From Chloroflexota bacterium (GTDB lineage Bacteria > Chloroflexota > Anaerolineae > Promineifilales > Promineifilaceae): a DNA stretch of 64,000 nt. The notes beneath the pieces are model-generated. The model made no database searches, had not been told where the DNA came from, and saw only the letters and a list, made by a program, of their open reading frames with translations. Location of the stretch: NCBI GenBank assembly GCA_041390905.1, contig JAWKPA010000012.1, positions 63,216-127,215 on the forward strand. The letters are read 5' to 3'. The position numbers and the translations under genes are program-made. Position 1 is the first letter of the stretch. Each line of letters starts with the position of its first letter. Shown in pieces: positions 8,250-62,950 of this stretch.

Positions 8250-8312
8250 TGGACGACAGATGACGGACGACGGACGACGGACGACGGAAGTTGTCTGTCG
8301 TCGATTGTCCGT
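8250..8312. repeat. heptamer-tandem hairpin element (GACGGAC type)
   Basis: gacgacagatgacggacgacggacgacggacgacgg - loop - gtctgtcgtcgattgtccgtcgtc. Sits between the divergent amidase and GNAT starts. Confidence 0.7.
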
Positions 8313-8330
8313 CGTCAAGGAATATACACA

Positions 8331-9463: not shown

Positions 9464-9653
9464 CAAACAGTGGTGCCGTTTGGCAACCACTTTGCGAACA
9501 GTTGCCAATGGTTCGCCGCCAGACGGCTCCACTAGCTGGCGGCGAATCATTGGCAACTGGTTACTTTTGCAGGTTGATTGGCATCTTGGAGCAAGACATA
9601 GGCACAACGCCTGTTTGTGTTTGGCCTCAAGAAAGGGCGTATGCGATACGCCC

Positions 9654-12804: not shown

Positions 12805-12892
12805 AGGGGAATAGAGATTGGGGATTGGAGATTGGAGATTGATGAAGGGTTTCAATCTCCAATCTCCAACCACTAATCTCCCTTTGCTTGAT
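12805..12892. repeat. heptamer-tandem hairpin element (GGAGATT / AATCTCC type)
   Basis: gattggggattggagattggagattgatgaagggtttcaatctccaatctccaaccactaatctcc. Sits at the 3' end of the S2P gene. Confidence 0.75.
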
Positions 12893-14039: not shown

Positions 14040-14112
14040 GGGGATGTGTGGGGAGTAGGGTGTGGGGTGTGGGGTGTAAACACGCTCCACACCCTACACC
14101 CTACTCCCCACG
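14040..14112. repeat. heptamer-tandem hairpin element (GGGTGTG type)
   Basis: ggggagtagggtgtggggtgtggggtg - taaacacgctc - cacaccctacaccctactcccc. Confidence 0.7.
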
Positions 14113-15242: not shown

Positions 15243-15330
15243 TGGCAAACGGTATTCAGTAATCAGTAATCGGTAATCGGTGTGCTACCGTTTACTGATT
15301 ACTGTTTACCGATTACTGTTTACTGCTCCC
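15243..15330. repeat. heptamer-tandem hairpin element (CAGTAAT/CGGTAAT type)
   Basis: cagtaatcagtaatcggtaatcgg - tgtgctaccg - tttactgattactgtttaccgattactgtttactg. The same heptamer family as 62883-62950. Confidence 0.7.
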
Positions 15331-16136: not shown

Positions 16137-16202
16137 GAGATTGGAGGTTGGAGATTGGAGATTGATGAAGGTTGACAATCCCTAATCTCCAATCTCCAAT
16201 CC
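16137..16202. repeat. heptamer-tandem hairpin element (GGAGATT type)
   Basis: gattggaggttggagattggagattgatgaaggttgacaatccctaatctccaatctccaatcc. Confidence 0.75.
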
Positions 16203-17682: not shown

Positions 17683-18348
17683 TCAGACCCACCCCAACTC
17701 AGCTAGATAAACCTGGAACATAAGCGAAAAGGCGTGAGCTGGTTGCCCAAAACTGAGGACAAACTCTCGTTCCAGCTTTGTTATTCCTGGCCTGCCTTCA
17801 CGTAATTGGCGTTCCCGAATTGCCCGTAACAAACGATCAAACTCGCGTAGCTGTTTAACACGCAAGTAATTTAGCTGCTCACGATCCAAATGGTATTTCC
17901 GAATCGTTTGGCTCCCTTTGAATGAGCCATACCGAGAGCGAATATATTCATCCTCAAATGATAAATGATCTTCGGGTAAGTCAATATTGTTGCAAGGATC
18001 AAGACAATCAGCTAAGGGAATTCGTGCATTTGGCTGCTTTTTACGGTTACATTCCCGGCATGCCCAGCATAGATTCTCCCATGCAAAGGCCAAGTCTGGG
18101 CGTTCTGCAACCTCCATAACGTGATCAACTTCCCCCTCGCTCTCAGCCAGCTTGCGTTCACAGTAAAAACATTTGCGGAAACTCATGGCGGCCAGCGTTT
18201 CACGAATCTCTACATGACGATATTGGCTGGAAGGGGGACGACTGGCAGGAGATGCTTGGCGTTTCTTTAAATACGCCTCCGTCCATCTCGCCTTGTTTTT
18301 AGTCAAAATAGCTGGTTCTGGTGGTCTCGACAATGTTCTCAAGCTCAA
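17683..18348 (-). CDS. HNH endonuclease (PtuB-like partner of the upstream ATPase)
   Basis: CFYCERKL ... EVDHVMEV ... NLCWACRECNRKK (HNH ββα-metal motif). Overlaps the ATPase stop by 4 nt. Low GC. Confidence 0.75.
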   Translation of the reverse strand: MSLRTLSRPPEPAILTKNKARWTEAYLKKRQASPASRPPSSQYRHVEIRETLAAMSFRKCFYCERKLAESEGEVDHVMEVAERPDLAFAWENLCWACRECNRKKQPNARIPLADCLDPCNNIDLPEDHLSFEDEYIRSRYGSFKGSQTIRKYHLDREQLNYLRVKQLREFDRLLRAIRERQLREGRPGITKLEREFVLSFGQPAHAFSLMFQVYLAELGWV

Positions 18349-19589
18349 AATCCCCCACGGGCCAACGACTGGATCATTTTGTCAACATCAAAATAGGAAA
18401 AGGCTTCAGGATTTAGCTGCTTCAACTGCGCTTCAATTTCATCTTGCAAGCGATGGTTATTTGACGCAATAGCCTCTTCCCGCTGTTCAAGCAGTTGCGT
18501 AATTTCTTCGTTATACGGTTGCGTTTCTTCAAAAAGTGGCGACATCAAAATTTCATCAACAGGTTTGTTGCTATACTCATCCGTTTCATCTACGACAACG
18601 CAGTGATCCCCGCGTGATTGGCAGACAAACAGACGGGCATTGGGTACCGACGAAATGATGAACGGCGAGTGCGTGGTAGCAATAATTTGCAAATTGGGGA
18701 AAAGCTCCAGAATGGTTCTAATAAACCGCTTCTGCCATTTGGGGTGCAGTTGGTTCTCTGCCTCATCAATTAACAGCAGCCCTGGTGTTTGCCCCAATTC
18801 CGACAAAGGCGTTTTCCGCAAAAAATGAACGGAATACATTTTTCCAAGCAAAGCAACCAGATTTTGAATTAGATATGAGTTGCCACTGCTAAGATTTTCT
18901 AAACCAACCTCTTGTCCATTTTGGATAATGATTGGCTCATAGGTAGCACGGGCAACATGACTTAATTTACCTCCATCGATCAGACTGTTAGCAATTATTT
19001 GCTCTAGCATGCTGTACAACTTCATGCCCATATTGCGTTCAGTGGTATCTCGACTATCTCGAAGATAATCAAAATGGCAAATTAGTTGCGTAATCTCATA
19101 TTTAGCTTTTATTCCATTCAAGGAATCTGTTAAATACTGCTCGTGCTTGGGGCTTATGAGCGAATGCACGTTATACGATCCACTTGCTGTTGTAGAAGGC
19201 CAGTAATCAACGAGCCAATCAGGTGCCGAATTTCCCCGCGCTACCTGGTATGGCATTTCATAAATTTGAATTGAGTCAGTATGAATCACTGTACTCGTCT
19301 CTCGCCGCTCAAACACTTTGGAGCTTAATTGCAGAAAGGAATTTTCTGGCTCCAGGCTTAACTCAATGTTTGCCTTATCGACCTGTCCTCTTCTGGGAAG
19401 GTCTCGTTCTAATTTGCAAAAATGTTCACCAAACATGCCACGAATGGCATCCAGGATGATGCTTTTGCCAGTTCCGTTTTCGCCTGTAATTAGCACAACG
19501 GGTGGTTTTTCATCCGTTTCGTTGAAAAAATCGAGTTCGGCTTCGATGAAAGGGCCAATGTTTTGGAGAGACAACTTTTTAACTCTCAT
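18345..19589 (-). CDS. AAA_21/ABC-type ATPase (PtuA-like; SMC/RecF-like N-terminus)
   Basis: Walker A GENGTGKSIILDAI. Signature LSSGNSYLIQNL. Walker B LLLIDEAENQLHP. H-loop ATTHSP. Low GC (about 43-45% by eye). No HIP copies. Confidence 0.8.
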   Translation of the reverse strand: MRVKKLSLQNIGPFIEAELDFFNETDEKPPVVLITGENGTGKSIILDAIRGMFGEHFCKLERDLPRRGQVDKANIELSLEPENSFLQLSSKVFERRETSTVIHTDSIQIYEMPYQVARGNSAPDWLVDYWPSTTASGSYNVHSLISPKHEQYLTDSLNGIKAKYEITQLICHFDYLRDSRDTTERNMGMKLYSMLEQIIANSLIDGGKLSHVARATYEPIIIQNGQEVGLENLSSGNSYLIQNLVALLGKMYSVHFLRKTPLSELGQTPGLLLIDEAENQLHPKWQKRFIRTILELFPNLQIIATTHSPFIISSVPNARLFVCQSRGDHCVVVDETDEYSNKPVDEILMSPLFEETQPYNEEITQLLEQREEAIASNNHRLQDEIEAQLKQLNPEAFSYFDVDKMIQSLARGGF

Positions 19590-19678
19590 AGGGCATTCTC
19601 ACTAATTGTGTTTTGCTGCATTGTACTGGGTTATAAACAAGAATTCTACCTTTCGCACACGCAGCCAAGCTCCAATCT

Positions 19679-21739
19679 CTAATCCCCAATCTTTCTGACC
19701 TGCCCCATAACAGACACATCATAACCGGGGAGAGCAGAAACGGCCGTTCTTACCTCCCCATCATGAAGCAAATCCAGCAGCGGCTTCAACTGTTCGCTTT
19801 CATAGTAGACGAGCGGGATCACCAGCTCATACTGCTCATGCGCCAGCGGCACAAAACCGAGGTTCAGCGCCCGCGCCGCCGCCTGAATCCCCAGCCCGGC
19901 ATCAGCCACGCCAGATGAAACCGCCGCTGCCACCGCCAAATGGGTATATTCCTCCCGCTCATAGCCACGCACCTGCGCCGGGTCAATCCCCCGCCGCCCC
20001 AGCTCATAATCCAGCAGCACCCGCGTGCCTGCCCCCCGCTGCCGGTTGACAAGCTGTATATCCGGGTTGGCCGCATCTTCCCAGCCCGCCAGCCGCTTGG
20101 GGTTGCCCGGCGGCACCATCCACCCTTGCTCCCGCCCCACCAGCGTCACCACCGCCACGGGCTGCCCCGGCAGATAGCGACGAATATAGCTGTCATTGTA
20201 AATCCCCGTTTCCGGGTCGAGCAGGTGCGAGCCAGCCAGATGTGCTTCGCCGCGCCGCAGGGCCACCAGCCCGCTTAGGCTGCCGACGTTGGCCGACATG
20301 AGACGAAAAACGGCCGTTTTTTCCGCCAAAAACTGAGCCAGCACATCCAGCGTCAAATCATGGCTGCCAATCGCCACAATCGTGCGCTCAATTTCCCTGG
20401 GCGTACGGTACAAATGCACCGTCACCGTCGCCCCGGCGTCTTCTCCTTCGCTAAAGCGGGGAATGCGAACAATCCCATCGGCTCGCACCAGCGAGGTGAT
20501 GACCCCCGCGCCGCGACTGATGGGGGTGGTCATGATGTTGTCGCCCACCTTGCCCACCGCCACCCGCACAAAGTCGTCGTCGCCAGTGTGGGAATTGATT
20601 TTGCGCGTTAGTCTGGCCTGAATCGTCGGCGGCTCATACGCCAGCCGCCCCTGCCACCGTGCCAGCAGCGGCTCGACAAAGATTTCGCCGGTGAGGGCGG
20701 CACTAACGGGGTAGCCGGGTACGCCGATGATGGGGGTGGTGTGGGGTGTGGGGTGTGGGGAGATTGGAGATTGGTTATTGGAGATTGGAGATTGGGAGGT
20801 TTCTAATCTCCAATCTCCAATCTCCAATAACCCAATGATAACGGGGTGGCCGGGGCGGACGGCCACGCCGTGTACCAGCAGTTGGCCGAGTGATTGGACA
20901 ACGTGGGCGGTGTAATCTTCGCTGCCGGCCGATGACCCGGCGTTGAGCAGAATGAGGTCGTGGGTTTGGGCGGCTTCACGAACGGCCGTTTGAATCGCCC
21001 CAAACGCATCCGGCACAATCGGCCAGCGGGTGGGCAACCCGCCCCAGTTGGCAACCTGCGCCGCCAGCACAATGCTGTTGTATTCGATGATTTGGCCGGA
21101 AGCGATGCCCGCAGAAACGGCCGTTTCCGCTGAGATTAGCTCCGACCCCGTGGGAATAATCGCCACTCGCGGCTGCCGGTAAACCGTCACCGTGGCATGA
21201 CCCGACCCCGCCAACGCTCCCAAATCCACTGGCCGCAGCTTGTGGTTGGCAGGCAGCACCAGCTCCGTCGCCACCATGTCCTCGCCCATGGGGCGCACGT
21301 GGTGCCACGGCGGCAGTGCCGCCCGAATCTGGATGCCGGGGGTGCCGTCGGGCAGCGTCACCGGCTCGGTGTGTTCAATCATCACCACGGCGTTGGCCCA
21401 ATCGGGCAGCGGGTGGCCGGTGTTGACGGCCTGAATGGGACGCGTTACGCTGTCGGGCGGGGTGTCTTTGTCAATGAGATTGAGCGTCAGGGGAGTGGTT
21501 TCGCTCGCTCCCACTGTGTCCTGCGCCCGCATGGCGTAGCCGTCCATGGCGCTGGCGTGGTAGTGGGGGGCGGATAGTTTGGCAAAAACGGCCGTTGCGG
21601 TTAAACGGCCGTTGGCCTCCGCCACCGGAATCGTCTCGCTGCCCAATGGCCGCCACAAATCGGCCGCCTCTAACGCCGTCCGCAGCGCCGCCTGCGCCTC
21701 GTCCAGCGGAATGTCCTCAAGGTAGATATGTCTTTTCAT
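19679..21739 (-). CDS. moeA: molybdopterin molybdotransferase MoeA fused to a C-terminal PBP-like (periplasmic-binding-fold) domain; contains an in-frame repeat insertion
   Basis: MoeA N-terminal and MPT-binding domains (…HGVAVRPGHPVIIGLL / IIGVPGYPVSAALTGEIFVEPLL). The C-terminal approximately 260 aa resemble the PBP_like domain commonly fused to MoeA. Confidence 0.8.
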   Translation of the reverse strand: MKRHIYLEDIPLDEAQAALRTALEAADLWRPLGSETIPVAEANGRLTATAVFAKLSAPHYHASAMDGYAMRAQDTVGASETTPLTLNLIDKDTPPDSVTRPIQAVNTGHPLPDWANAVVMIEHTEPVTLPDGTPGIQIRAALPPWHHVRPMGEDMVATELVLPANHKLRPVDLGALAGSGHATVTVYRQPRVAIIPTGSELISAETAVSAGIASGQIIEYNSIVLAAQVANWGGLPTRWPIVPDAFGAIQTAVREAAQTHDLILLNAGSSAGSEDYTAHVVQSLGQLLVHGVAVRPGHPVIIGLLEIGDWRLETSQSPISNNQSPISPHPTPHTTPIIGVPGYPVSAALTGEIFVEPLLARWQGRLAYEPPTIQARLTRKINSHTGDDDFVRVAVGKVGDNIMTTPISRGAGVITSLVRADGIVRIPRFSEGEDAGATVTVHLYRTPREIERTIVAIGSHDLTLDVLAQFLAEKTAVFRLMSANVGSLSGLVALRRGEAHLAGSHLLDPETGIYNDSYIRRYLPGQPVAVVTLVGREQGWMVPPGNPKRLAGWEDAANPDIQLVNRQRGAGTRVLLDYELGRRGIDPAQVRGYEREEYTHLAVAAAVSSGVADAGLGIQAAARALNLGFVPLAHEQYELVIPLVYYESEQLKPLLDLLHDGEVRTAVSALPGYDVSVMGQVRKIGD
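20727..20836. repeat. composite heptamer hairpin element (GGGGTGT x3 plus GGAGATT arrays) inserted in frame inside moeA
   Basis: ggtggtgtggggtgtggggtgtggggagattggagattggttattggagattggagattgggaggtttctaatctccaatctccaatctccaataacc. Translated within MoeA as LEIGDWRLETSQSPISNNQSPISPHPTPHTTP. Confidence 0.8.
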
Positions 21740-21814: not shown

Positions 21815-22018
21815 GAACCGCAGAGTTCGCAGAGGGCGCAAAGACAGAGAAGTTGGATACGGATAAAAACAATGAGCCAGTAAGTGAGATTGTAATAAGT
21901 TACAAGAGATTGGAGATTAGAGATTAGAAACGAGCCAATCTCCAATCTCTAATCTCCATTTTGTATATCTAACCTTCCTTCCTAAACCTCCGCGCTCTTT
22001 GCGCCCTCTGCGGTAAAT
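21815..22018. repeat. nested element: outer IR (CCGCAGAGGGCGCAAAGA ... TCTTTGCGCCCTCTGCGG) enclosing a GGAGATT-type heptamer hairpin (21893-21958)
   Basis: Lies between the divergent moeA and DUF4956 gene starts. The outer arms match the element at 345-470. Confidence 0.6.
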
Positions 22019-25552: not shown

Positions 25553-25612
25553 AAGAAGAGGCTTGGAGATTGATAGAGGTTCACAATCTCCAACCCTCAA
25601 TCGCTAATCTCC
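25553..25612. repeat. heptamer-tandem hairpin element (GGAGATT type)
   Basis: ggcttggagattgatagaggttcacaatctccaaccctcaatcgctaatctcc. Sits at the 3' end of the M20 peptidase gene. Confidence 0.7.
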
Positions 25613-28800: not shown

Positions 28801-29013
28801 ATGAAGCCCCGGTGGAGGTTGGTTTTCATGATTCACAATAGTTCCCCCCCGCATTCATAACCCCATTGATCTGGTTCCATATTGGCTGGTCATAAACGGC
28901 CGTTTTTGCTTGTCACCACATACTTTCTGCAAGTAACAAGTAACAAGTCGCAAGCCCCTTTTGCCCAGCGAGCTTGCCACCTGCCACTTGCCACCTGCTA
29001 TAGAGAAACTATC

Positions 29014-32885: not shown

Positions 32886-32950
32886 CGATTGGTTAATTGG
32901 AGATTGGAGATTGGTTGGCTGCCTATCCCAATCTCCAATCGCTAATCTCC
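32886..32950. repeat. heptamer-tandem hairpin element (GGAGATT type) between convergent genes
   Basis: ggttaattggagattggagattggttggctgcctatcccaatctccaatcgctaatctccaatt. Confidence 0.75.
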
Positions 32951-34069
32951 AATTGCTGATCGGCCAAACCGCTGCATGATTGCTAACACGTCATCTACCG
33001 GTAGGGCGTGGCGGGTGTTGCCGTCACGCCCGATGACGGTGTGGGCCATGAAGAGGCTGTTGAGGATAGCTTCTTCGATGGTTTCGATAACGGCCGTTCC
33101 CAGCAAACTCATGATCGGTTGTTCCAGCAAAACGGCGCGTTGCACAACCAGCTCGGCCGGCCGATCTGGCACAGTGTAGGCCGTGGAAAAGGCAATGACA
33201 AAATCGCCGCTGCCGCCAGCACAGGTGCTGCCGGTACGAGCCAGACCAAAGGCGGCGCGGCGACATAATCGTTCAAGCTGGCGGCTGTCGAGTGGGGCGT
33301 CGGTTGCCAGCACCATCATGATGGAGCCATCGTCCAAACGGAGTTCATCGCTGGGGGGCTGGAGGTGCTGCCCAACGGGAACCCCGGCAATCGTTAGCTC
33401 GTGGGGTTGGCCGAAGTTGGTTTGCACCAATGCGCCAATGGTAAAGCCGCCCGCACTTTCGGGCAGCACGCGGCTGGCGGTGCCAATGCCGCCTTTCCAG
33501 CCAAAGCAGCTTGTGCCAGCCCCTGCCCCCACGGCTCCTTCTGCCACGGGATCGGTGCTGGCGTTGGTGATGGCGCGGAAAACGGCCGTTTCTCCTACCA
33601 CCCTTCCCTGCATATCATTCAAGAAGCCATCGTTTGTTTCCCCCACCACCGGGTTTACGCTGGCGTAGCCACGCCGCCCCGTTGTGGCAAACCCCACGCC
33701 GATGTGGGGGTTTTGTACCAGAGCATGGGAAATCAGGGCATCGGCTACGCGGGGGGCGTTGAGGGTGCTGGTCAGGGCAATGGGGGTTTCCAGGTTGCCC
33801 AATTCACGCACCTGCTCAAAGCCGATGACTTTGCCAAAACCGTTGATGCTGTGAACAGCGGCCGGCGCTTTGTCCTTATAAAGATTACCTTGATGGGGCA
33901 AAATGACGGTGACACCAGTACGAAACGGCCCCTGCCCCGGCTGCCACACCCCATCCCCAGCCACCACTGTTGCATGACCAACCGCCACGCCCGCCACATC
34001 AGTAATGCCATTGTGCTTTCCGACTGCCAATTGGCGTGGCAGCATATTGAATGCACCAATTCGTTTCAT
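32942..34069 (-). CDS. P1/S58 family peptidase (DmpA/OAT-like L-aminopeptidase/D-Ala esterase)
   Basis: NGITDVAGVAVGHAT … and the Gly-Ser autoprocessing site context. GAGGAGG lies 5 nt upstream of the ATG. Confidence 0.7.
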   Translation of the reverse strand: MKRIGAFNMLPRQLAVGKHNGITDVAGVAVGHATVVAGDGVWQPGQGPFRTGVTVILPHQGNLYKDKAPAAVHSINGFGKVIGFEQVRELGNLETPIALTSTLNAPRVADALISHALVQNPHIGVGFATTGRRGYASVNPVVGETNDGFLNDMQGRVVGETAVFRAITNASTDPVAEGAVGAGAGTSCFGWKGGIGTASRVLPESAGGFTIGALVQTNFGQPHELTIAGVPVGQHLQPPSDELRLDDGSIMMVLATDAPLDSRQLERLCRRAAFGLARTGSTCAGGSGDFVIAFSTAYTVPDRPAELVVQRAVLLEQPIMSLLGTAVIETIEEAILNSLFMAHTVIGRDGNTRHALPVDDVLAIMQRFGRSAIGD

Positions 34070-37059: not shown

Positions 37060-37122
37060 ATTGGGGATTGGAGATTGGAGATTGATGAGGGTTCACAATC
37101 TCCAATCTCCAATCTCCAATCC
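37060..37122. repeat. heptamer-tandem hairpin element (GGAGATT type)
   Basis: gggattggagattggagattgatgagggttcacaatctccaatctccaatctccaatccc. Confidence 0.75.
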
Positions 37123-39270: not shown

Positions 39271-39287
39271 GAATTTAAAGCAGAGAG

Positions 39288-39350
39288 ATTGGGGATTAGA
39301 GGTTGGAGATTGTGAAGGTAGTCCCCAATCTCTAATCTCCAATCTCCACT
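39288..39350. repeat. heptamer-tandem hairpin element (GGAGATT/AGAGATT type)
   Basis: ggggattagaggttggagattgtgaaggtagtccccaatctctaatctccaatctcc. Confidence 0.7.
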
Positions 39351-41344: not shown

Positions 41345-41398
41345 CCTGACATGTTGTTGGAGATTAGAGATTGGAGATTGCAGATGGTCAATCTACCC
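41345..41398. repeat. partial heptamer hairpin element (GGAGATT type)
   Basis: gttggagattagagattggagattgcagatggtcaatctaccc. One arm is degraded. Confidence 0.5.
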
Positions 41399-41452
41399 AA
41401 ACAGATGAATTAATCAACAGCGGTTCTTCAGAAATTCATGGAGCCGCCGCCC

Positions 41453-41492
41453 CAAATTGTAGTGGCGAGGCATGCCTCGCCACTACAATTTG
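41453..41492. repeat. perfect 40-bp palindrome CAAATTGTAGTGGCGAGGCATGCCTCGCCACTACAATTTG
   Basis: Read directly from the sequence. No flanking U-run. Sits downstream of the 41514-41951 gene and upstream of the radical SAM gene. Confidence 0.7.
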
Positions 41493-41513
41493 TTCTGTCA
41501 ACCCTATAAGATC

Positions 41514-41951
41514 CTAAAGAACCCCGATAGCATTAAATCCGTTTTCACGCATCTCATCCAGATTGCCTTCCCAGTTGAGTTTGCCGCGAAGCTGACGCAC
41601 CTGCAACTGCTGATCATGCTGAATCATGAGGTAGAGGGCTTCTTCGACAATGGCTTGTTTTGTTGGCAATCCAGAAAGCTGGTGGGCTTGCTCAATGAGT
41701 TCCTCGTTACTGCTTACCCAAAGCGATGAAATTGGAAAAGTTCCCTCATCCAACGCCTCCTGCCATCCTTGGGCAAAGCTTATATCTGCCGGGTTCAACG
41801 ATACACTTTGGCGGTATAGGCGCACAATATTGAGCAGCGCAGGTAAATATTCATCCGGGGTTGCTTCAATTTCGGCAAAAAGTCGATCTTTGTAGGGCGT
41901 AATTTGTTTAATCACGATTGTAGATTCCTCATTAACGGCCGTTTTCCCCAT
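41514..41951 (-). CDS. protein with a C-terminal Rv0623/VapB-like antitoxin domain (orphan; no adjacent toxin)
   Basis: The C-terminus …QLQVRQLRGKLNWEGNLDEMRENG matches the Rv0623-like (PSK_trans_fac) antitoxin ending. The N-terminal 80 aa are unknown. The start is uncertain. Confidence 0.45.
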   Translation of the reverse strand: MGKTAVNEESTIVIKQITPYKDRLFAEIEATPDEYLPALLNIVRLYRQSVSLNPADISFAQGWQEALDEGTFPISSLWVSSNEELIEQAHQLSGLPTKQAIVEEALYLMIQHDQQLQVRQLRGKLNWEGNLDEMRENGFNAIGVL

Positions 41952-42749: not shown

Positions 42750-42762
42750 AACTGTTTGGAAT

Positions 42763-42822
42763 GGGACGCAGATTTACCTGATTTACAGGATTTATCAGGC
42801 AAATCAGGCAAATCTGCGTCCC
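42763..42822. repeat. heptamer-like hairpin element (CCTGATTTA/CAGGCAAAT type)
   Basis: gggacgcagatttacctgatttacaggatttatcaggcaaatcaggcaaatctgcgtccc. Confidence 0.7.
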
Positions 42823-42828
42823 ATTTTT

Positions 42829-43634: not shown

Positions 43635-43705
43635 AGTGATTAGAGATTGGGGATTAGAGATTGTGAACCTTCATCAATCTCCAATCTCCAATAACCAATA
43701 ACCAA
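43635..43705. repeat. heptamer-tandem hairpin element (GGAGATT type)
   Basis: gattagagattggggattagagattgtgaaccttcatcaatctccaatctccaataaccaataacc. Confidence 0.75.
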
Positions 43706-43713
43706 TTATCCCC

Positions 43714-44822: not shown

Positions 44823-45863
44823 ATGTCCAGGATCAAACGCTTTACCCCCATCCTTGCACTCATCGTCACCACGCTACTCGCCCTGTCTGCCTGCCAGCAA
44901 GAAGCAGCCAGCACAGAGCTTAACCTGCTTTGTACCCCCCAGGTGGAATGGTGCGAAGGGATGAAAGCGGAGTTTGAAGCTGCAAATCCCGAAATCACCG
45001 TCAACTTTGTGCGTATGTCCAGCGGCGAATCGCTGACCAGGCTGCGGAATGAAAAAGACAACCCCCAGTTTGACATCTGGTGGGGTGGCCCGATTGACAG
45101 CTTCATTGCTGCCAAAGATGAGGGTTTGCTCGAAGCCTATGACTCACCCAACCTCGACAACATCAAAGACCCCGGCCTGATGCTCGACCCTGACCACACC
45201 TGGGCCGGTGTGTATGTAGGTTCACTCGGTTTTGCCACCAACCAAAACTTCCTCGACGAAAACCCCGGTCTGGAACCACCGCGCAGTTGGGACGATTTGC
45301 TGAAACCAGAGTTTGCGGGGCAACTCATGGTAGCCCATCCGTCCAGCTCCGGCACCTCTTACACCGCCCTCTGCACCGTGCTGCAAATGCGGGGCGAGGA
45401 TGCTGGTTGGGAGTATCTGAATGCCTATGCCGGGCAGGTGAACCAGTTTACCAAGAGCGGTTCGGCTCCGGCACGGTTTGTGGGTCAGGGAGAAGCGGCC
45501 GTTGGCATCGTCTTCTCCCACGACATTGTAGCCCAAATTGAAGCCGGCGCGCCGCTGGTGCTGACCTTCCCCGAAGAGGGAACTGGCTACGAAATTGGTG
45601 GTATGGGGATCATCAAAGGGGCCGCCCATCTGGATGCGGCGCAGAAATGGTTTGATTGGGCGTTGGAACCAGCTACGCAGGAGCTTGGCCCCAAATACGC
45701 TGCCTTCCAGGCACCCACCGTCAATGGAGCCGAAGCCTCCATGCCGGAACTGCTGGATGTCAACCTGATTGACTACGACTTCCAGTACTGTGGCGAAAAC
45801 AAAACCGCCTTTGTAGACCGCTTCACCAACGAAATCGCCAACGCTGATAGTTTGAAAGAGTAA
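44823..45863 (+). CDS. ABC transporter substrate-binding lipoprotein (iron(III)/FbpA-AfuA-like, SBP family 1)
   Basis: AGGAGG upstream of ATG MSRIKRF. Lipobox LALSAC. Followed by a permease and an ATPase. Confidence 0.85.
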   Translation: MSRIKRFTPILALIVTTLLALSACQQEAASTELNLLCTPQVEWCEGMKAEFEAANPEITVNFVRMSSGESLTRLRNEKDNPQFDIWWGGPIDSFIAAKDEGLLEAYDSPNLDNIKDPGLMLDPDHTWAGVYVGSLGFATNQNFLDENPGLEPPRSWDDLLKPEFAGQLMVAHPSSSGTSYTALCTVLQMRGEDAGWEYLNAYAGQVNQFTKSGSAPARFVGQGEAAVGIVFSHDIVAQIEAGAPLVLTFPEEGTGYEIGGMGIIKGAAHLDAAQKWFDWALEPATQELGPKYAAFQAPTVNGAEASMPELLDVNLIDYDFQYCGENKTAFVDRFTNEIANADSLKE

Positions 45864-45935
45864 TTGGGAGATTAGGAGATTAGGAGACTGGGAGACTGTC
45901 TGTAGAGTTTCTCAGTCTCCCAGTCTCTCAGTTTC
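45862..45935. repeat. hairpin element (GGAGATTA / GGGAGACT heptamer-like arrays) between the SBP and permease cistrons
   Basis: ggagattaggagattaggagactgggagactgtctgtagagtttctcagtctcccagtctctcag. Confidence 0.7.
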
Positions 45936-48262: not shown

Positions 48263-48344
48263 TGGAGCGAGTAACAGGTGGCATGTTGCAAGTACAAAGA
48301 CTTGCCACCTGCCACTTGTTACTTGTTACCCTTCTGGAGCGCAT

Positions 48345-49545: not shown

Positions 49546-52500
49546 TCAGTTGCCTGTGGCATAAAGCCACATCGTATCGATTAAATCATTTTGATTAGGG
49601 CTATTACCACCAAACATGACAATACCATTTAAGGGGGCGTAGTAAACGGCTTCGCTGGCCCATGTTGCTGGTGGATTGGTTGTCGGGGTAGCTGCAACCC
49701 ATTGCTGCCCATCAAATTCCCATGTGTCAGCATAGGCACCCGTGTGATACAAAACGTCATAGCCACCAAACAAAACAAGTCGTTGTTGAACAGGATTATA
49801 GGCCATTTGATAATTATAACGTCTGGGAATAGTTGGTGTCCCAATTTCAGACCAGCCATCCCCATTATAAGCCCAGGTTTGGTTGTAGAGTTGTGTTCCA
49901 TTGCGAACTGATAAGATGACTTTGCTCCAATCTGAGACGTAAGACATCCATGAACCGGTATTAGCTGGAGGTGAATTGGTCGTGCTAATTTGTGTCCAAT
50001 TCGTTCCATCATATTCCCAAGTATCATTGAGGATATCGTTGCCTATTTGTGTTCCGCGCCAGCCACCAAACATGATGACTTTGCCCCGAACAGGGTCATA
50101 GGTCATTGCATGATTACTGCGTCCCAAGGGTGTATTGCTTGTATTAATCTGGCTCCAACTGTTGCCATCGAATTCCCAAGTATCGTTGAGATGGATTCCA
50201 GCCCAGACATGCCCACCAAACAACACAATGCGCTGCCGTGAACTGTCATAGACCATTCGGGCATTCTCTCTAGGGCTGGGCCCACTGATATTGAGTTCTT
50301 GCCAACTAGTGCCATTAAAGACCCATGTGTCGTCACAAGCAAATCCTGCACACGTGCCACCAAACAGCACCAACTCATTGCTGCTGGTGTCAACCGCTAA
50401 TGCCACACCCGCTCTAGCTGATGGTTTTGTTGACGACTGATTGACCAAAGACCAATTATAGGTTGGGTTAGGTGGTTCTCCGGGTGAAATGGGAAAGTTG
50501 AAAATCCCAACTTCGTTGGAAACGACTTCTCCAGTTGCGTTAAGTGACTTCACTTTATAGAAACCGCCAGCATTTACAATAAATTCAGATGTTGGTGCGT
50601 TTAGCGTTGCGAGCTTGGTACTGCCGCTGTCACCCGGCGTAAAGTAGGGATTAGGGCTATGCCAAACTTCATAGGTTGTATTTTGTGACTGATGTGTCCA
50701 AGTGAGCGTTACTTGGCTACCATTTTGCTCAGTACCAACATTGATTTGGGTAGGTCCTGTAGAAACATAGGTGGTCGTGGCAAAGGTTATGTGTCCTTGA
50801 TAATCACCCACACCATCAAAGGCATTGGTTCCCCCAAGACCATCAGCCACTGTACCGGGCAACCCAAAATTCCAGCCACCGTTGCTTACAGTAATGATGC
50901 CGTTCCAATGCAAAACATGCTCACCCGTTGGGCCATAGACATCATAAGATACGTCGATATCGGCATCTGCACCCGTCGTGTTCACGATAGTCAGCACCCA
51001 TTGAATGGGATCACCGGGATCGAAGGTGTTTTTGGCACCCCAATTGCCATCACCTGTCCAGGCATCTGTTATTTCTACAGTGGGGCAAACGGCCGTTTCG
51101 CCTTGAACCCAGCCTGCTTGCCCTGATTCGCTGCCGTTATTGACGGCACTCACAGTGTAGTAGTGCGTTTCCCCACAAGTCAGTCCTGTATCTGTGTATG
51201 AGGTGACATTGGCCGCCACCGAATCAAGATAAAGGAAGTCCCACGCTGTGCCATTCCAGCCCCAGCGATAAATTTTGAAACTGGTCTCGTTGCTGGAATT
51301 ATCTTGCCAAGCCAAAGAAATACTGTTGTCAGTCGTGCCACTTACAGATAAATTCGAGGGCGATGTAGGTGCTGGCGGGGTGCAAGTGGTATTGTGGAAT
51401 ATCTCAACTGAGGAAACAGTGTTGTTTAAGCTTCCAAGGCTGGAAACATCGCCAGTTAAGCAGCCACTTGCTTGCCCACCTCGATCATTGTGTTCATAGA
51501 GGCGAATAGACCAGCCATTCGGAATGCGAACAGATTCGCCGCGATCGTTAAAGTAGAGATCATCTGGCCCCCCAATTTGATTGAGGTTATGGAGACCTTC
51601 ATTGTAGCCAATCCCCCAATGGTGGCTACCGTAGTTTTGATTGTCATACATGACAACGCTATAGAGTTGCGAGGTGGGGCAGTTGCTCTGGTTGAAGGTT
51701 TGTACGCCGGTGACTTGGCCTCTTAAGTCCCAAGGGTCGCCGCTGGGCAGGGGAATGCGGTTGCCGCTATAACATTCGGCCGTTCCGCGCAGACCGCCTT
51801 CTCTGAACAGAAAGACAGATTTTCCAGCAGGTACAATGGTTGACCGCATCCTGTCATTAAGACCAAAACTTGATAAATCACTATAAACCCCAATGGGAAA
51901 TATCCAACAATCAGAACTAGCATCATCTGTGCCACACAATATTACCTCATCAGACTGGTGAGAGGTGTCTATGTGGAATTGTCTTGTTACCCATGCGCTG
52001 GCCTCACCAGCTTCATTCCACGTCCGCATATGCCAATAAAATGTCCTATCTGCGGAAAAGGTATAGTCATGGCTTGTGTAGCCGTTGCCAAGACCCGTAT
52101 CTACAATCCAAGGTTGCGTATCTGGATTTGAACTTGTATTCAGTCGGAATGTATACCCCGTTTGATTCGGAGAGTTAGGGCTTTGCCAAACAAAATGAAC
52201 AGATCTGTTATCTAGTATTTCGCCATTGTTTGGGGAAACAAGTAGCGGGGGCGTGAGAGTCCCTCCACCTCCACAAAGGCTGCTGGTATTGCTCTGAGAA
52301 ATAAATCGGTTTTGTCCTGGGCAATGAGGACTGTTGTTTGATTGAAACCAAGTTTTGTGTGACTCAAACGCAAAAACCGTCTTTGCTGTATTGGCTTCAT
52401 TGGTATGAGGAAAGCCATTTTCTACACCTGCATCTACCCAACCACAGTTTGTGCTAATATTTTTTGAGGTTGTAGAAATAGCAGATCTGACAGCCGAGCC

Positions 52501-54519
52501 ATTGTATCCTTCTGCAAAACCTTGTGCATTGACTTCTGGGTAGATCCTCCAACTATCGATCTCTATGCCTGTCCAAGGAACGGCAGAGCCTTTCCCTGCC
52601 CAAGTGCTGTAATTTGAACCTCCCGTCCGAAGCTCTAAATGAATGTGAGCAGGATCCCCACTTGGTAGACCAGAATTACCTATTTCTCCAAGATATGCTC
52701 CTGATTGAATCGGCTGTCCAACATGAAGATTCGGATTGATAGAGGAAAGGTGCCAATACATTGACACGACATTATTTGAATGCTCAACTGCTACCCAACG
52801 TCCTCCTTGCCAAATAGTTGTGTCTTGTTTAATTCCAACAATTGTACCACCTGCAATAGAGATAACGGCCGTATTGAATGGGTCATTTTGGTCAACGCCA
52901 CCACCAAAATCAATGCCCGAAGTCTCGTTCACTGGTGTGTCATTGCAACCAGGAGGATGACCAACGCCATGTGGCCCACCCGAATATGTACGCCTGTCAA
53001 CAAAGGGCATCAAAAAAGTAACCGTGTTGAGGTTTTTGAATACGAGCTCCATATACGGAGCAGTCGTTTTTGGATCGCCAAAGTACGCAGAGTAAATATC
53101 GTAAAATTGTTTTTCAACATCATAGGGAGATTTGTGGTAAGCTGCAGCGTTAATTGCTACTCCCGTGGCAATCCCAAAGCTTGAATTATTTACAGCTCTA
53201 TTTAAACGAGAATATGTATACCAAGTCTCAATTGCTTGGTCATCTATATGTTTGGATCTGAATGTGGCAGTGGCTTTCATCATTTCTATTGCCACATCAA
53301 GCAATTCCTTTTCGTATCCTTGCAATACCCCACAATTTAAGTTTGGGTCGGAAATAATCCCATGAGTAATTTCTGACATTACGAGCAGAACTCTTGGATT
53401 TATGCCAGTTTCTTCTGATATTTTGTTGACTAGACTCGAATAATTTACGATGTCATTATCTATCTCAAAATAACAATTGCTAACAGAGGAATTAACGTTA
53501 TCAAGCCATTGCCGAATATCAAATGCGTCAATACTTGGAGCATATACAAATCGAGATTCAGCTATCCAGTTTGCAGATTTTTCTTGAGGGTACTCTTTTG
53601 GTTTGCTGATAAGCTCAACGCTAGACAGCATTTGATAGCCAATATACAAATCAGATACGTCGTTAAGCGTCTGCACAAAGCGAAAATGATAGAGATATCC
53701 CTCGATATAAAAGATTTTTTCCGTATTGTAATTTCCATCATGATCCAAGAGCGCGATCTGCCTACCTTCTCCTTCACTTAATTGTAATATCTGCTTATCT
53801 AGAATCTCGTTGTTTGCCGCTCGATAGTCTTCATAATAATCCCACTCATCAGGGGTCATCGGCGCAACAAAGGCTGAGAAAAAGCCACCTTGGATTGGAT
53901 GCCCTAATTTATCAACTTCCAGATTAGGGCTGCCGATACGAAATCCGAAATCTTTGTAAGGGATATTTTGTAGATTCCAATTTGAGGGGTACGAAACGGT
54001 GAATGCCCAATAGGGATCGGTATAAGTTTCCCAGCCAAGGGTGCTTTGTAACAATGAGTTGTCAAAATTTGGGGCAGGTAATTCTAATCTGGATCGTAAT
54101 GTTTCCTTTTCGGCAAGGGGAATTAGGGTGTCTGGCAAAACGGTTAACCATTGAGGATAGAGCATGTTATCTGGTAAGACGACTTGCCAAATGCCATTTG
54201 GAAGCGCATGAGCTAGGGCAACATATCTGTGAGCGGGGGAGCGTTCAATGATGCCGTAAGCCCACTGGCCTTCTACGTTGATTTCTATGAGTGTGGCTGT
54301 TGGGTCGTTGGAGAGGGCTGTGGCAAAGGCTTCTTGTATTTGTGTTTCGTCTTGGTTCGTGGTTTGTTGGGTTGAAGGAGGGGATGGGGTTGGTAACGGC
54401 CGTTTTTCAATCATCCCTCCTGAGTCAGACTGTAGCATATCGGGCGATGCCCCAATCTGCAAACTTGAAAGCAGCATAAATGTAACTACCAAAATAATGA
54501 ACGAAAATTTGCGTCTCAT
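49546..54519 (-). CDS. giant secreted multidomain protein (1657 aa): signal peptide, M23 (LytM-type) peptidase domain, fibronectin-III domains, and C-terminal Kelch/β-propeller repeats
   Basis: Signal MRRKFSFIILVVTFMLLSSLQIGA. M23 motif GEIGNSGLPSGDPAHIHLELR. FN3-like PPAPTSPSNLSVSGTTDNSISLAWQD. Kelch-like repeats (LVLFGG…DTWVFNG, IVLFGGH…DTWEFDG). Lower GC. GAGGAAA upstream of the start. Confidence 0.75.
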   Translation of the reverse strand: MRRKFSFIILVVTFMLLSSLQIGASPDMLQSDSGGMIEKRPLPTPSPPSTQQTTNQDETQIQEAFATALSNDPTATLIEINVEGQWAYGIIERSPAHRYVALAHALPNGIWQVVLPDNMLYPQWLTVLPDTLIPLAEKETLRSRLELPAPNFDNSLLQSTLGWETYTDPYWAFTVSYPSNWNLQNIPYKDFGFRIGSPNLEVDKLGHPIQGGFFSAFVAPMTPDEWDYYEDYRAANNEILDKQILQLSEGEGRQIALLDHDGNYNTEKIFYIEGYLYHFRFVQTLNDVSDLYIGYQMLSSVELISKPKEYPQEKSANWIAESRFVYAPSIDAFDIRQWLDNVNSSVSNCYFEIDNDIVNYSSLVNKISEETGINPRVLLVMSEITHGIISDPNLNCGVLQGYEKELLDVAIEMMKATATFRSKHIDDQAIETWYTYSRLNRAVNNSSFGIATGVAINAAAYHKSPYDVEKQFYDIYSAYFGDPKTTAPYMELVFKNLNTVTFLMPFVDRRTYSGGPHGVGHPPGCNDTPVNETSGIDFGGGVDQNDPFNTAVISIAGGTIVGIKQDTTIWQGGRWVAVEHSNNVVSMYWHLSSINPNLHVGQPIQSGAYLGEIGNSGLPSGDPAHIHLELRTGGSNYSTWAGKGSAVPWTGIEIDSWRIYPEVNAQGFAEGYNGSAVRSAISTTSKNISTNCGWVDAGVENGFPHTNEANTAKTVFAFESHKTWFQSNNSPHCPGQNRFISQSNTSSLCGGGGTLTPPLLVSPNNGEILDNRSVHFVWQSPNSPNQTGYTFRLNTSSNPDTQPWIVDTGLGNGYTSHDYTFSADRTFYWHMRTWNEAGEASAWVTRQFHIDTSHQSDEVILCGTDDASSDCWIFPIGVYSDLSSFGLNDRMRSTIVPAGKSVFLFREGGLRGTAECYSGNRIPLPSGDPWDLRGQVTGVQTFNQSNCPTSQLYSVVMYDNQNYGSHHWGIGYNEGLHNLNQIGGPDDLYFNDRGESVRIPNGWSIRLYEHNDRGGQASGCLTGDVSSLGSLNNTVSSVEIFHNTTCTPPAPTSPSNLSVSGTTDNSISLAWQDNSSNETSFKIYRWGWNGTAWDFLYLDSVAANVTSYTDTGLTCGETHYYTVSAVNNGSESGQAGWVQGETAVCPTVEITDAWTGDGNWGAKNTFDPGDPIQWVLTIVNTTGADADIDVSYDVYGPTGEHVLHWNGIITVSNGGWNFGLPGTVADGLGGTNAFDGVGDYQGHITFATTTYVSTGPTQINVGTEQNGSQVTLTWTHQSQNTTYEVWHSPNPYFTPGDSGSTKLATLNAPTSEFIVNAGGFYKVKSLNATGEVVSNEVGIFNFPISPGEPPNPTYNWSLVNQSSTKPSARAGVALAVDTSSNELVLFGGTCAGFACDDTWVFNGTSWQELNISGPSPRENARMVYDSSRQRIVLFGGHVWAGIHLNDTWEFDGNSWSQINTSNTPLGRSNHAMTYDPVRGKVIMFGGWRGTQIGNDILNDTWEYDGTNWTQISTTNSPPANTGSWMSYVSDWSKVILSVRNGTQLYNQTWAYNGDGWSEIGTPTIPRRYNYQMAYNPVQQRLVLFGGYDVLYHTGAYADTWEFDGQQWVAATPTTNPPATWASEAVYYAPLNGIVMFGGNSPNQNDLIDTMWLYATGN

Positions 54520-54635
54520 TGCGATTTCCTCGTCTCCAATGCTGGCTCAGTCTCTTGTGCCTTGCGCCCTGCATGACAAAAGTGCCTTGCACCACAGATG
54601 GAACAAGGCACCTGATTATAGCTTTTTTTCCTGGC

Positions 54636-57074: not shown

Positions 57075-57181
57075 ATCGTTGCCTCTTTCCTCTATTCTTG
57101 AAGGTATGACGAATCGAAACGAACTGAAAAACACTAAAGAAATAACCTTTCTATTTGATTATAGTGGTTAGAGTTTGGTGT

Positions 57182-60477: not shown

Positions 60478-61629
60478 ATGATTACCCTAATTGCCACAGC
60501 CAAATTTGGGCTGGAAAAAATGGTGCGGCTGGAAGTGGCGGCACTGGGTTTTGACAACATTGCCGTGTCGCCGGGGCGCATTGAGTTTGCGGCGACGCTG
60601 GCCGATATTCCCCGGCTTAACCTGTGGCTGCGCTGTGCCGACCGGCTGCTGCTGAAGGTGGCGGAATTCCCGGCGACGACGTTTGATGATCTGTTTGAGC
60701 AGTGCAAGGCCATTGAATGGGAGCGGTGGATTGGGGAAAACGGCCGTTTTCCCGTCGCCGCCCACAGCGTCAAATCCACCCTCATGAGCGAACGAAGCTG
60801 TCAATCCATTGTCAAAAAGGCGGTCGTGGATCGGTTGAGTGCGGCGTATGGGGTGGCATGGCTGGCGGAAACGGGCGCCGAATACGCCATTCACCTGTCG
60901 CTGCACAAGGACGTGGCTCTGCTGACGCTCGATACCTCCGGCGCGGGGCTGCACAAGCGGGGGTACCGCGAGGAAGCGGGGGAAGCACCGCTGAAGGAGA
61001 CGCTGGCGGCGGCGCTGGTGAAGTTGAGCTATTGGCGACCCGATAGGCTCTTGATTGACCCCATGTGTGGCTCTGGCACCATCCTCATCGAAGCGGCACT
61101 GATGGCGCGGAATATAGCTCCGGGGTTAAAACGGCCGTTTGCTGCCGAGCAGTGGCCCATCATCCCCGCTGCCGCTTGGGCAGGAGCCAGGCACGAAGCC
61201 GAAGCCGCCATTCGCCACGACATGGCACTGCAACTTTATGGCTACGATAGTAACCCCGCTGCCATTGCCATTGCCAAAAGCAATGCTGCCAAGGCAGGGG
61301 TAGGCGACGACATTGTGTTTGCCGTCAAAGACGTGCGGGAACTGTGGATTGACCAGCAGCACGGCATCGTCATCACCAATCCACCCTACGGCATGAGGAT
61401 GGCCGAATATCAGACGCTCAACCAAATCTACATCGCCCTCAACAAAATGTTCCGCAAAAAGCAGGGCTGGTCAGTCTATGTCCTCACTGCCGACCACAAA
61501 TTCCCCGACTACTTCAAACGCGCCCGCCCCGACCGCGTTCGCAAGCTCTACAACGGCACGATTGAGGCCAATTACTATCAATATTATGGGGAAAAGCCGC
61601 CGGGGGGGAAAGAGAATTATGAATTATGA
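60478..61629 (+). CDS. THUMP-domain class I SAM-dependent RNA methyltransferase (RlmL/YpsC-like, COG0116)
   Basis: N-terminal THUMP region. DPMCGSGTILIEAA. ITNPPYG catalytic motif. Confidence 0.8.
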   Translation: MITLIATAKFGLEKMVRLEVAALGFDNIAVSPGRIEFAATLADIPRLNLWLRCADRLLLKVAEFPATTFDDLFEQCKAIEWERWIGENGRFPVAAHSVKSTLMSERSCQSIVKKAVVDRLSAAYGVAWLAETGAEYAIHLSLHKDVALLTLDTSGAGLHKRGYREEAGEAPLKETLAAALVKLSYWRPDRLLIDPMCGSGTILIEAALMARNIAPGLKRPFAAEQWPIIPAAAWAGARHEAEAAIRHDMALQLYGYDSNPAAIAIAKSNAAKAGVGDDIVFAVKDVRELWIDQQHGIVITNPPYGMRMAEYQTLNQIYIALNKMFRKKQGWSVYVLTADHKFPDYFKRARPDRVRKLYNGTIEANYYQYYGEKPPGGKENYEL

Positions 61630-61672
61630 ATTATGAATTATGAATGGTTCATAATTCATAATTCATAATTGC
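61612..61672. repeat. heptamer-tandem hairpin element (GAATTAT / ATAATTC type) between convergent genes
   Basis: gaattatgaattatgaattatgaatggttcataattcataattcataattgc. Confidence 0.8.
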
Positions 61673-62882: not shown

Positions 62883-62950
62883 TGGAAGTAATCAGTAATC
62901 GGTAATCAGTTGGGGTCACTGATTACCGATTACTGATTACCGATTACCCT
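62883..62950. repeat. heptamer-tandem hairpin element (CGGTAAT type)
   Basis: cagtaatcggtaatcagttggggtcactgattaccgattactgattaccgattacc. Confidence 0.75.

Follow-up and report, generated by a model that had tools for sequence, protein, structure and literature searches.

What does a perfect hairpin of tandem heptamers do inside the coding sequence of a conserved enzyme, and how has it come to lie there in frame? The question is raised by a moeA gene of a Chloroflexota bacterium (Anaerolineae; Promineifilales; Promineifilaceae), contained in a stretch of 64,000 nt (NCBI GenBank assembly GCA_041390905.1, contig JAWKPA010000012.1, positions 63,216 to 127,215 of the forward strand) that is called the window here and to which all coordinates without a locus name refer. 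The gene carries an insert of 96 nt at a turn of the MoCF domain. The insert is probably a copy, or a descendant, of a hairpin family present throughout the genome, carried by MoeA as a translated and tolerated passenger of which only the open frame is selected.

The host is a moeA-PBP fusion gene, an uninterrupted open reading frame (ORF) on the reverse strand (19679-21739, -) whose translation has 686 aa and in which Pfam finds the MoeA_N, MoCF_biosynth and MoeA_C domains and a C-terminal PBP_like domain. Sequence matches in the PDB are to MoeA and gephyrin E (1e-45 to 1e-33), and Foldseek, run on an AlphaFold2 model of the protein, returns gephyrin E and MoeA structures with a probability of 1.00. 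The Pfam domains, together with the RPGHP and GVPGYPVS motifs on the two sides of the turn, are those of a molybdenum insertase of the MoeA/gephyrin-E type. A public protein collection contains one 100% identical protein and 119 close homologues, the closest of them from Chloroflexota metagenome-assembled genomes (MAGs) labelled Ardenticatenaceae, Promineifilaceae, Ca. Leptofilum or Anaerolineae, and 640 alignment columns are well conserved.

The expanded turn comprises codons 304-335 (20735-20830, -; LLEIGDWRLETSQSPISNNQSPISPHPTPHTT), that is, 32 residues or 96 nt, stop-free and in frame, so that the protein around it reads ...HGVAVRPGHPVIIG LLEIGDWRLETSQSPISNNQSPISPHPTPHTT PIIGVPGYPVSAAL... 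(in short, RPGHPVIIG-LLEIGDWRLETSQSPISNNQSPISPHPTPHTT-PIIGVPGYPVS); a tryptic peptide suited to the detection of the insert is LETSQSPISNNQSPISPHPTPHTTPIIGVPGYPVSAALTGEIFVEPLLAR. The DNA is composite. A (GGGGTGT)x3 array (20738-20760, given by Tandem Repeats Finder, TRF, as (GGTGTGG)x3.3), which has no inverted partner, reads (CCCCACA)x3 on the coding strand, encodes PHPTPHT and abuts the native codons ACC CCC ATC (Thr-Pro-Ile). TRF further reports, on the + strand, (GGAGATT)x5.3 at 20759-20795 and (AATCTCC)x3.4 at 20805-20828. Two GGAGATT units (20759-20772) lie outside the stem, as seen from TRF and the fold, and encode part of QSPIS. The stem itself is made of a G-rich arm (20773-20795, + strand GGTTATT GGAGATT GGAGATT GG, the 3' arm of the mRNA) and a C-rich arm (20810-20832, + strand CC AATCTCC AATCTCC AATAACC, the 5' arm of the mRNA) that extends into the native Gly303/Leu304 codons, the two being separated by an apical loop (20796-20809; GAGGTTTCTAAT on the + strand, TTAGAAACCTCCC on the coding strand). 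Both arms have 23 nt and are 100% complementary, giving a perfect stem of 23 bp, and the coding strand folded as RNA reaches -43.1 kcal/mol (z = -7.35), with none of 200 shuffles folding equally well. The first-pass annotation of this DNA had described an intact MoeA ORF that runs across a composite heptamer hairpin, and on this the ORF, TRF, the inverted repeat and the fold agree; the interval that it had given (20727-20836) holds the insert plus a few native flanking bases. It had also counted about 32 extra residues, which is indeed the length of the loop, whereas the net gain over orthologues with a basal turn of 5 residues is only 27 residues (81 nt).

A direct repeat of 16 nt (15/16 identical) brackets the insert at 20704-20719 and 20839-20854, and was rejected as a target-site duplication, being accounted for by the codons of the two conserved PG(H/Y)PV motifs, PGYPV and PGHPV, which use identical codons; the repeat is probably motif-driven and could promote the deletion of the DNA between its copies. 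An intrinsic terminator within moeA was also rejected: the stem lacks a T-run behind it, and the terminator scan made no call there. Rfam, applied to the whole window at gathering thresholds, has no family for the hairpin, and at E <= 1 around the element it yields only sub-threshold matches to generic miRNA-precursor hairpins.

In the protein, the insert falls between two strands. Aligned with the MoeA of P. horikoshii (1uz5), query residues 19-305 correspond to residues 9-292 of the chain and 335-445 to 295-400, so that residues 306-334 stand opposite just two residues. The archaeal structures thereby lead to the conclusion that the first-pass annotation had drawn from E. coli MoeA. In the AlphaFold2 model, built from 23 homologues (mean predicted local distance difference test score, pLDDT, of 67), a coil at 308-332 separates strands 298-307 and 333-340, with pLDDT below 50 at 311-330, and the insert is hence a low-confidence coil at the tip of a beta hairpin. 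The first-pass annotation had proposed a surface loop of the molybdopterin-binding domain, and the insert would accordingly lie in a surface turn of the MoCF domain, as a flexible excursion at the tip of the beta hairpin whose residues are probably disordered.

Hairpins of the same design occur all over the window. A scan with the pattern GGAGATTGGAGATT, allowing up to 2 mismatches, gives 43 matches in about a dozen loci, against 0.38 expected, and the design is a tandem GGAGATT array, a short loop and an inverted AATCTCC array. The copies have a common apical loop, TGATGARGGTTCAC, in either orientation, which indicates that they are related and are not arrays that arose independently. The copy in moeA is the only one in the window deep within a gene, and its loop, TTAGAAACCTCCC, resembles that of the intergenic copy directly upstream of moeA (21905-21958, loop TTAGAAACGAGCC). 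Another intergenic copy, at 12806-12881, has the family loop TGATGAAGGGTTTCA; further ones lie at 16137-16201, 32896-32961, 37060-37121, 39284-39348 and 43638-43706, and partial ones at 25584-25612 and 41357-41385. No common flank was seen when the copies of the window were compared. Besides the copy in moeA, about 18 hairpins with units of 7 or 8 nt lie in intergenic spacers of the window, also at 8251-8316, 14046-14108, 15250-15325, 28930-28998, 45863-45932, 48264-48329, 61614-61670 and 62887-62948; other units that occur in hairpins of the same design are GTGTGGG, CGGTAAT, GAATTAT, AGTAATC, GGACGAC and the octamer ATTAGGAG. On a simple gene map, nearly all spacers at 12.8-16.2 kb and many of those at 37-49 kb contain hairpins, which also stand between co-directional genes of apparent operons and use at least 8 different units. 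No T-run follows the spacer hairpins in the cases inspected; candidate roles for them are those of mRNA stabilisers, processing sites or others.

The same turn was compared in 80 orthologous loci, taken from one genome per species (57-92% identity; loci are numbered with the prefix L), and in 120 database homologues of the protein. Its length ranges from 5 to 41 residues, and it is expanded in 75 of the 80 loci, belonging to Ardenticatenaceae, Promineifilaceae, Ca. Leptofilum and Anaerolineales, the basal turns of 5 residues (MVGST, LIGET, MIADT) being found in Geobacteraceae and a few Chloroflexota. Among the 120 homologues, a hypervariable turn stands between flanks, RPGHPV..G and P.IGVPGYPVS, that do not vary; the other regions with indels are ordinary variable loops. 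TRF detects arrays of period 7 or 8 in the turn of 35 of 81 loci (4,548 nt in total), against 105 arrays, mostly weak, in the 559,791 nt elsewhere, which makes the turn about 60-fold denser. In about 20 loci the insert folds as a hairpin with z < -3, built from different units: GGAGATT-type (window, L001, L010, L029, L047), the octamer GGTGACAA (L002, L005, L009, L011, L014, L019), GGAGCAAG (L008; weaker in L012, z = -2.3), AATGACG/ACTCGTC (L062; sub-threshold in L039, L041 and L027, with z = -2.8, -1.4 and -0.9) and GGAGAGT (L048). L015 has GGTGACAA arrays and a hairpin that is not significant (z = -1.3), one-sided arrays of the AATCAGC type occupy the turn in L051, L056 and L070, and L003, L006, L046 and L017 have one arm only, which folds no better than shuffles. 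The insert had been expected to prove lineage-specific upon alignment with orthologues, and it is not; neither is it an old loop of conserved residues independent of the repeat family, which the first-pass annotation had named as the outcome contrary to its proposal, since its residues are unconserved and encoded by repeats. Expansion in most loci with such varied units implies a site that is old or recurrently used and whose content changes quickly.

Despite this range of lengths, the turn is in frame in all 81 loci and in all 120 homologue proteins. The GGAGATT unit is stop-free in six frames, a property common to about half of all 7-mers. Among units that bear a TGA, the triplet is kept in 27 of the 30 that are out of frame and is replaced in all 6 that are in frame (by TGG, GAA, TTA or CGA): GGTGACAA arrays keep it in 20/21 cases out of frame and 0/4 in frame (TGG or GAA instead), and AATGACG arrays in 7/9 and 0/2, respectively. 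The fact that TGA has been substituted just where it is in frame implies that the repeats were present before the substitutions that now keep them open, as would be expected of a translated passenger. This avoidance of stops shows, at the level of nucleotide sequence, purifying selection on the frame, and the member of the hairpin family that sits in the MoeA turn is almost certainly translated. What would be expected of a phase-variable contingency locus was not found, as none of the 81 loci or 120 homologues is off frame and no more than 3-5 units make up the arrays.

Insertion in frame is not confined to this turn. Two further turns of MoeA carry in-frame repeat inserts in more distant loci, one near reference residues 92-100 (L039:3265-3375, L041:3265-3390, L068:2245-2470) and one near residues 125-135 (L046:3405-3495, L066:3335-3400); most of them fold as strong hairpins, the largest being that of L068 (about 70 residues, -107 kcal/mol), whereas the one-sided octamer array of L046 barely folds (-9.4 kcal/mol). 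A pattern scan of metagenome contigs found perfect GGAGATT hairpins in 119 loci, 26 of the hairpins having at least 170 open codons on each side. Pfam places the in-frame hairpin within or between the domains of a molybdopterin oxidoreductase, IleRS, a PPDK-like enzyme, MutS, an isocitrate/isopropylmalate dehydrogenase (IPMDH; Iso_dh), PBP1A, an XDH-type molybdenum cofactor (MoCo) subunit, a DEAD helicase, a P-type ATPase, an aconitase-family protein and an E1 dehydrogenase (loci L085, L094, L095, L102, L104, L105, L147, L153, L158, L165, L185, L188 and L201). In Iso_dh the same site is occupied in two Pfam-confirmed loci, with a third (L180) assigned by peptide similarity only, and in aconitase the same site is likewise occupied in two Pfam-confirmed loci; the second XDH locus (L198) is assigned by peptide similarity only. 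The GGAGATT hairpin is therefore in frame in at least 11 protein families besides MoeA, or at least 12 counting MoeA, and in-frame hairpins are a widespread habit of these Chloroflexota genomes, apparently one that is undescribed. Left out of this count were the arrays in long frames of L025 and L074, which resemble either stop-free repeats that are read through or spurious frames of high GC content, and five membrane-protein candidates (L114, L123, L166, L174, L177), which have no domain support across the insert. With another unit, a (CGGTGAC)x5 array at L014:1760-1794 is read in frame as SSVTGHRSPVTDNR, in what looks, by eye, like a linker before an RpiB/LacAB-type isomerase domain.

The peptide of the translated hairpin, searched in a collection of 5.8 billion proteins, matched no host proteins, only domainless proteins of 31-88 aa. 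More than 100 of these public "hypothetical proteins" (P0121-P0240) are translated GGAGATT hairpins or arrays; most have no organism label, and those labelled come chiefly from Chloroflexi MAGs, with single records from Nostoc, Vibrio and a fungus. They can be regarded as annotation artefacts, because the GGAGATT unit is stop-free.

The content of the MoeA insert changes even between close relatives. Loci L001 and L081-L083 (92-93% protein identity) differ from the window by indels of 7-nt units, and of the CCCCACA units the window has three, the 92% relative one and the 93% relatives none. Within Ca. Leptofilum, L002 has arms of the GGTGACAA type and L029 and L047 arms of the GGAGATT type, and on a neighbour-joining tree of MoeA, made with the loop left out, inserts of these two types interleave. 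In the window, L001, L002 and L005, the insert is made of the units that are also dispersed in the flanking DNA, which points to an exchange with the genomic repeat pool. The C-rich arm of the window copy has an AATAACC unit, and opposite it the G-rich arm has the matching variant GGTTATT; this lengthens the perfect stem, and such a mirrored change is what template switching at a quasi-palindrome would be expected to produce, as far as one case can suggest. Inserts of the GGAGATT and GGTGACAA types have identical boundaries; the loop codons Thr-Asn-Glu (AATGAGC) are common to L029 (GGAGATT type), L002 and L005 (GGTGACAA type), L011 has the related Thr-Asp-Glu (GACGAGC), and the left arm of L029 has a unit, GGAGACT, intermediate between GGAGATT and GGTGACAA units. 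These common boundaries and loop codons and the intermediate arm of L029 suggest descent with turnover of the arms. In addition, a palindrome, GCGACC-NNN-GGTCGC, is nested in octamer arrays, with a single copy in L005 and one in each arm of L012, resembling the small dispersed repeats that are inserted into heptamer arrays in Nostoc.

If the insert is a passenger derived from the genomic hairpin family, the turn would have been expanded since early in Anaerolineae-type Chloroflexota, and the in-frame copy would be transcribed and translated together with moeA, adding about 27 low-complexity residues at the tip of the beta hairpin and presumably leaving the enzyme undisturbed. Selection would solely keep the frame open, the insert being a passenger and not a functional module, as argued by the hypervariable loop between invariant flanks, its pLDDT below 50, the lineages with one arm and the persistence of the basal turn. 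Its content could turn over in three ways: by gain and loss of 7- or 8-nt units through slippage, as shown between close relatives; by exchange with, or re-insertion from, the genomic hairpin pool, as the units shared with flanking copies suggest; and probably by template switching within the hairpin, which would keep the arms complementary. The loss of one arm would let the hairpin decay to a plain low-complexity loop. Several points weigh against this account. Translation is read from sequence constraints alone, disorder from the low pLDDT of a model of only moderate quality (mean pLDDT 67), and template switching from the single mirrored unit GGTTATT/AATAACC; all the sequences are metagenome assemblies, in which the copy number of repeats is prone to mis-assembly; the hairpins with z < -3 at the turn, made of different units in about 20 lineages, could mean selection for structure; and descent with arm turnover fits the present data no better than re-insertion at a hot spot. 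Under the latter explanation, which is conceivable but somewhat doubtful, the turn or its resident array would be a preferred target that has received many independent insertions in place of a single descent. The density of arrays in the turn (35/81 loci within 4.5 kb of loop against 105, mostly weak, in 560 kb outside), the mingling of unit types on the MoeA tree, with different types even in a single genus, the composite or nested structures (GGAGATT with CCCCACA in the window, GCGACC-N3-GGTCGC in L005 and L012), the in-frame hairpins of octamers or heptamers that other genomes have at two further MoeA turns and the match of the insert units with flanking dispersed copies would all be explained in this way. 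However, inserts with different arm units have the same boundaries, the shared or related loop codons of L029, L002, L005 and L011 and the intermediate unit of L029 suggest descent, neither a target-site duplication nor a target motif shared by the inserts was found, and a single old insertion followed by vertical inheritance accounts for the high occupancy without any targeting.

A functional element appears very unlikely, whether it were an mRNA hairpin that modulates expression (by pausing the ribosome between folding units, as a site for RNase III/E or as a partial terminator), a frameshifting contingency locus or a loop with a role of its own. It would account for the strong hairpins that about 20 lineages have at one codon position although their units differ; a unit of 7 nt is not a multiple of three, so that a slip of one unit would switch the frame; and in the P6b stem of the Nostoc trnL intron two different 7-nt motifs have been argued to serve one structural role (PMC4476775). 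Nevertheless, many lineages have one arm or no array, some have a turn of 5 residues, the stem has no T-rich tail and is not called by the terminator scan, no locus or homologue is frameshifted and the arrays are short, the peptide is unconserved, and the presence of the same element in many unrelated proteins is more in keeping with a passenger than with a regulator specific to moeA. The assembly of palindromic tandem repeats is difficult, and the exact protein of the window was not located on a contig in the genome collection, where a 93% relative was found, but an assembly error or a non-functional gene is extremely improbable, given that an in-frame hairpin is present at the same site in independent assemblies produced by different studies (NCBI JACKCD01, three ENA samples), that the ORF of 686 aa with its 640 well-conserved columns is intact and that stop avoidance shows purifying selection on the frame.

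The order of the arms may hold a clue to how the hairpins are made. In an unbiased TRF survey of the window and 83 loci (L001-L083), the G-rich array is the 5' arm in 35/35 hairpins made of an array and its inverted array, about 20 of which are non-orthologous; the reverse order was found in three cases in a further 0.73 Mb (L147:63, L188:6260, L198:3996). This polarity is not an effect of orientation, because the architecture reads identically on either strand. It might be explained if the hairpins were made and renewed by an active and polar process that does not depend on the sequence of the unit and prefers existing hairpins, turns such as that of MoeA being then self-renewing landing pads, a proposal that must be considered rather unlikely. 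Such a process might consist in reiterative synthesis from the two 3' ends of a break or in copying by template switch. If it were true, new and probably disordered protein segments would keep arising from the polar process in Anaerolineae, perhaps also in filamentous cyanobacteria, and the hairpins would not be merely old selfish insertions.

The closest parallel in outcome, proposed already by the first-pass annotation, is with the Rickettsia palindromic elements (RPE), which have 105-146 bp, form consensus families and are found in Rickettsia (Ogata et al. 2000, 2002; PMC2229807). Both are dispersed palindromic repeats that are intergenic and also fused in frame into genes for conserved proteins, with many hosts, and in both the inserted peptide appears to be tolerated and neutral; a long stem-loop with intergenic and in-frame copies is what was found here (-43 kcal/mol; MoeA and 11 families). 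An RPE peptide is one that sits on the surface of its protein, compatibly with fold and activity; its counterpart in the MoeA model is the low-confidence coil at the tip of the beta hairpin. The parallel therefore holds for the mechanism, given the in-frame copies in at least 11 other families, and fails for sequence, size, architecture and host. The Chloroflexota element has 60-100 nt of GGAGATT heptamers, with no sequence relation to RPE, a comparison made without direct alignment to the RPE consensus; it is built of tandem units of 7 or 8 nt that change in length by slippage, with many unit families per genome; it lives in free-living Chloroflexota of the Ardenticatenaceae type with large genomes; and one protein site, the MoeA turn, is occupied across a whole class with changing units. 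Small stem-loop repeats of the miniature inverted-repeat transposable element (MITE) kind, such as ERIC, YPAL and the 107-bp Correia species, also provide open frames fused inside genes, and their variants with stop codons stay intergenic (PMC2229807), which is likewise the case for the Chloroflexota element. They resemble the Chloroflexota element in being small stem-loops in frame in genes, but MITEs have terminal inverted repeats, a TA or other target-site duplication and a related transposase; neither terminal inverted repeats nor target-site duplications were seen for the Chloroflexota copies, and no search for transposases was made. The conserved GTAG/CGTC head of repetitive extragenic palindromic sequences (REP/REPIN), which are palindromes of 20-40 bp, is not evident in the window copies, and no search for the REP-associated RAYT transposase was made.

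In its units the element is closer to the heptamer repeats of cyanobacteria. The P6b stem of the Nostoc tRNA-Leu(UAA) group I intron is made of 7-nt repeats with the motifs TDNGATT or NNTGAGT, its length varies by whole 7-nt units on either arm, and the motif classes repeatedly replace each other among close relatives (PMC4476775). The MoeA insert is likewise a stem of 7-nt units at a fixed position of a functional gene, with changes by whole units and replacement of unit classes, and GGAGATT and GGAGAGT are each one mismatch away from the P6b motifs (a resemblance only, seen by eye); tandem heptamers in both arms with length variation by whole units, as in P6b and in the short tandemly repeated repetitive (STRR) sequences, are present (TRF period 7, arms 100% complementary), and GGAGATT arrays are found in a Nostoc record (P0139). 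The host in Nostoc is a structured RNA, whereas in MoeA it is a coding sequence, to which the constraint of frame and stops is added, and the phylum differs; the cyanobacterial host and the canonical units of STRR are lacking. STRR heptamers are said to have been found inside cyanobacterial RNase P RNA, by Vioque in 1997. Other heptamer arrays are the intergenic TAACTGA arrays of Beggiatoaceae and cyanobacteria (PMC4679880) and the GGACCGG x4 elements of Geobacter metallireducens, which lie within and between genes (PMC2700814). All these share with the Chloroflexota arrays tandem units of 7 nt, richness in spacers, many unit families per genome and large or filamentous bacteria as hosts, but they are mostly direct arrays, whereas the Chloroflexota array nearly always has an inverted copy with the G-rich arm first, and in-frame translation in conserved enzymes has not been described for them in the cited literature. 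Membership in RPE, STRR, MITE or REPIN is not supported, and the likeness is functional and architectural. No literature was found that links Chloroflexi or Anaerolineae with heptamer or octamer repeats, in a search outside which most subscription journals lay.

To our knowledge, in-frame "protein-coding palindromes" have so far been confined to Rickettsia, Wolbachia and a few enterobacterial MITEs. Here the outcome is as in Rickettsia, but in free-living Chloroflexota with large genomes, and the element is constructed otherwise, from tandem heptamers in perfect hairpins. The MoeA turn is a natural experiment in which one beta-hairpin turn of a conserved enzyme has taken up 0-36 extra residues from at least 6 repeat types across a class, always keeping the frame and with the stop-removing point substitutions still visible. 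It bears on the origin of low-complexity, probably disordered protein loops and on how much insertion a conserved enzyme fold tolerates, on gene annotation, as the same hairpins create many spurious small ORFs, and, via the strand polarity and the parallel with Nostoc trnL P6b, on the mechanism of bacterial heptamer repeats.

Another repeat touches the same gene at its 3' end. A one-arm array of the GGAGATT type (19665-19692, TRF) overlaps the stop codon of moeA, at the edge of a Septu island, and the last residues of MoeA, ...KIGD*, are read from it, whereas the MoeA of the relative L081 ends in ...VRIL* and has no array, which implies that the repeat has rewritten the C-terminus of the protein. 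The island is a low-GC defence system of two genes between moeA and ctaG (17683-19589, -), composed of PtuA, an AAA_15/21 ATPase (18345-19589; PADLOC E-value 7.6e-151), and PtuB, an HNH nuclease (17683-18348). The GC content at third codon positions (GC3) of these genes is 0.43-0.44, against about 0.7 in adjacent genes, and the island is recent, because in L081, the 93% relative, a spacer of just 41 nt is found at that place.

The window also contains inverted repeats that are not made of heptamers, with arms of 32 nt made of 9-mers at 42760-42825 (GATTTACAG / ATCAGGCAA), with an arm of 51 nt, 73% palindromic, at 41422-41523, and with 24 nt (96%) at 9499-9559. Finally, a low-GC stretch (49546-57134, -; GC3 0.36-0.41) encodes two large proteins, one of 1657 aa (M23 peptidase, fn3 and a Kelch beta-propeller) and one of 832 aa (LVIVD repeats), and is probably foreign or surface-related.

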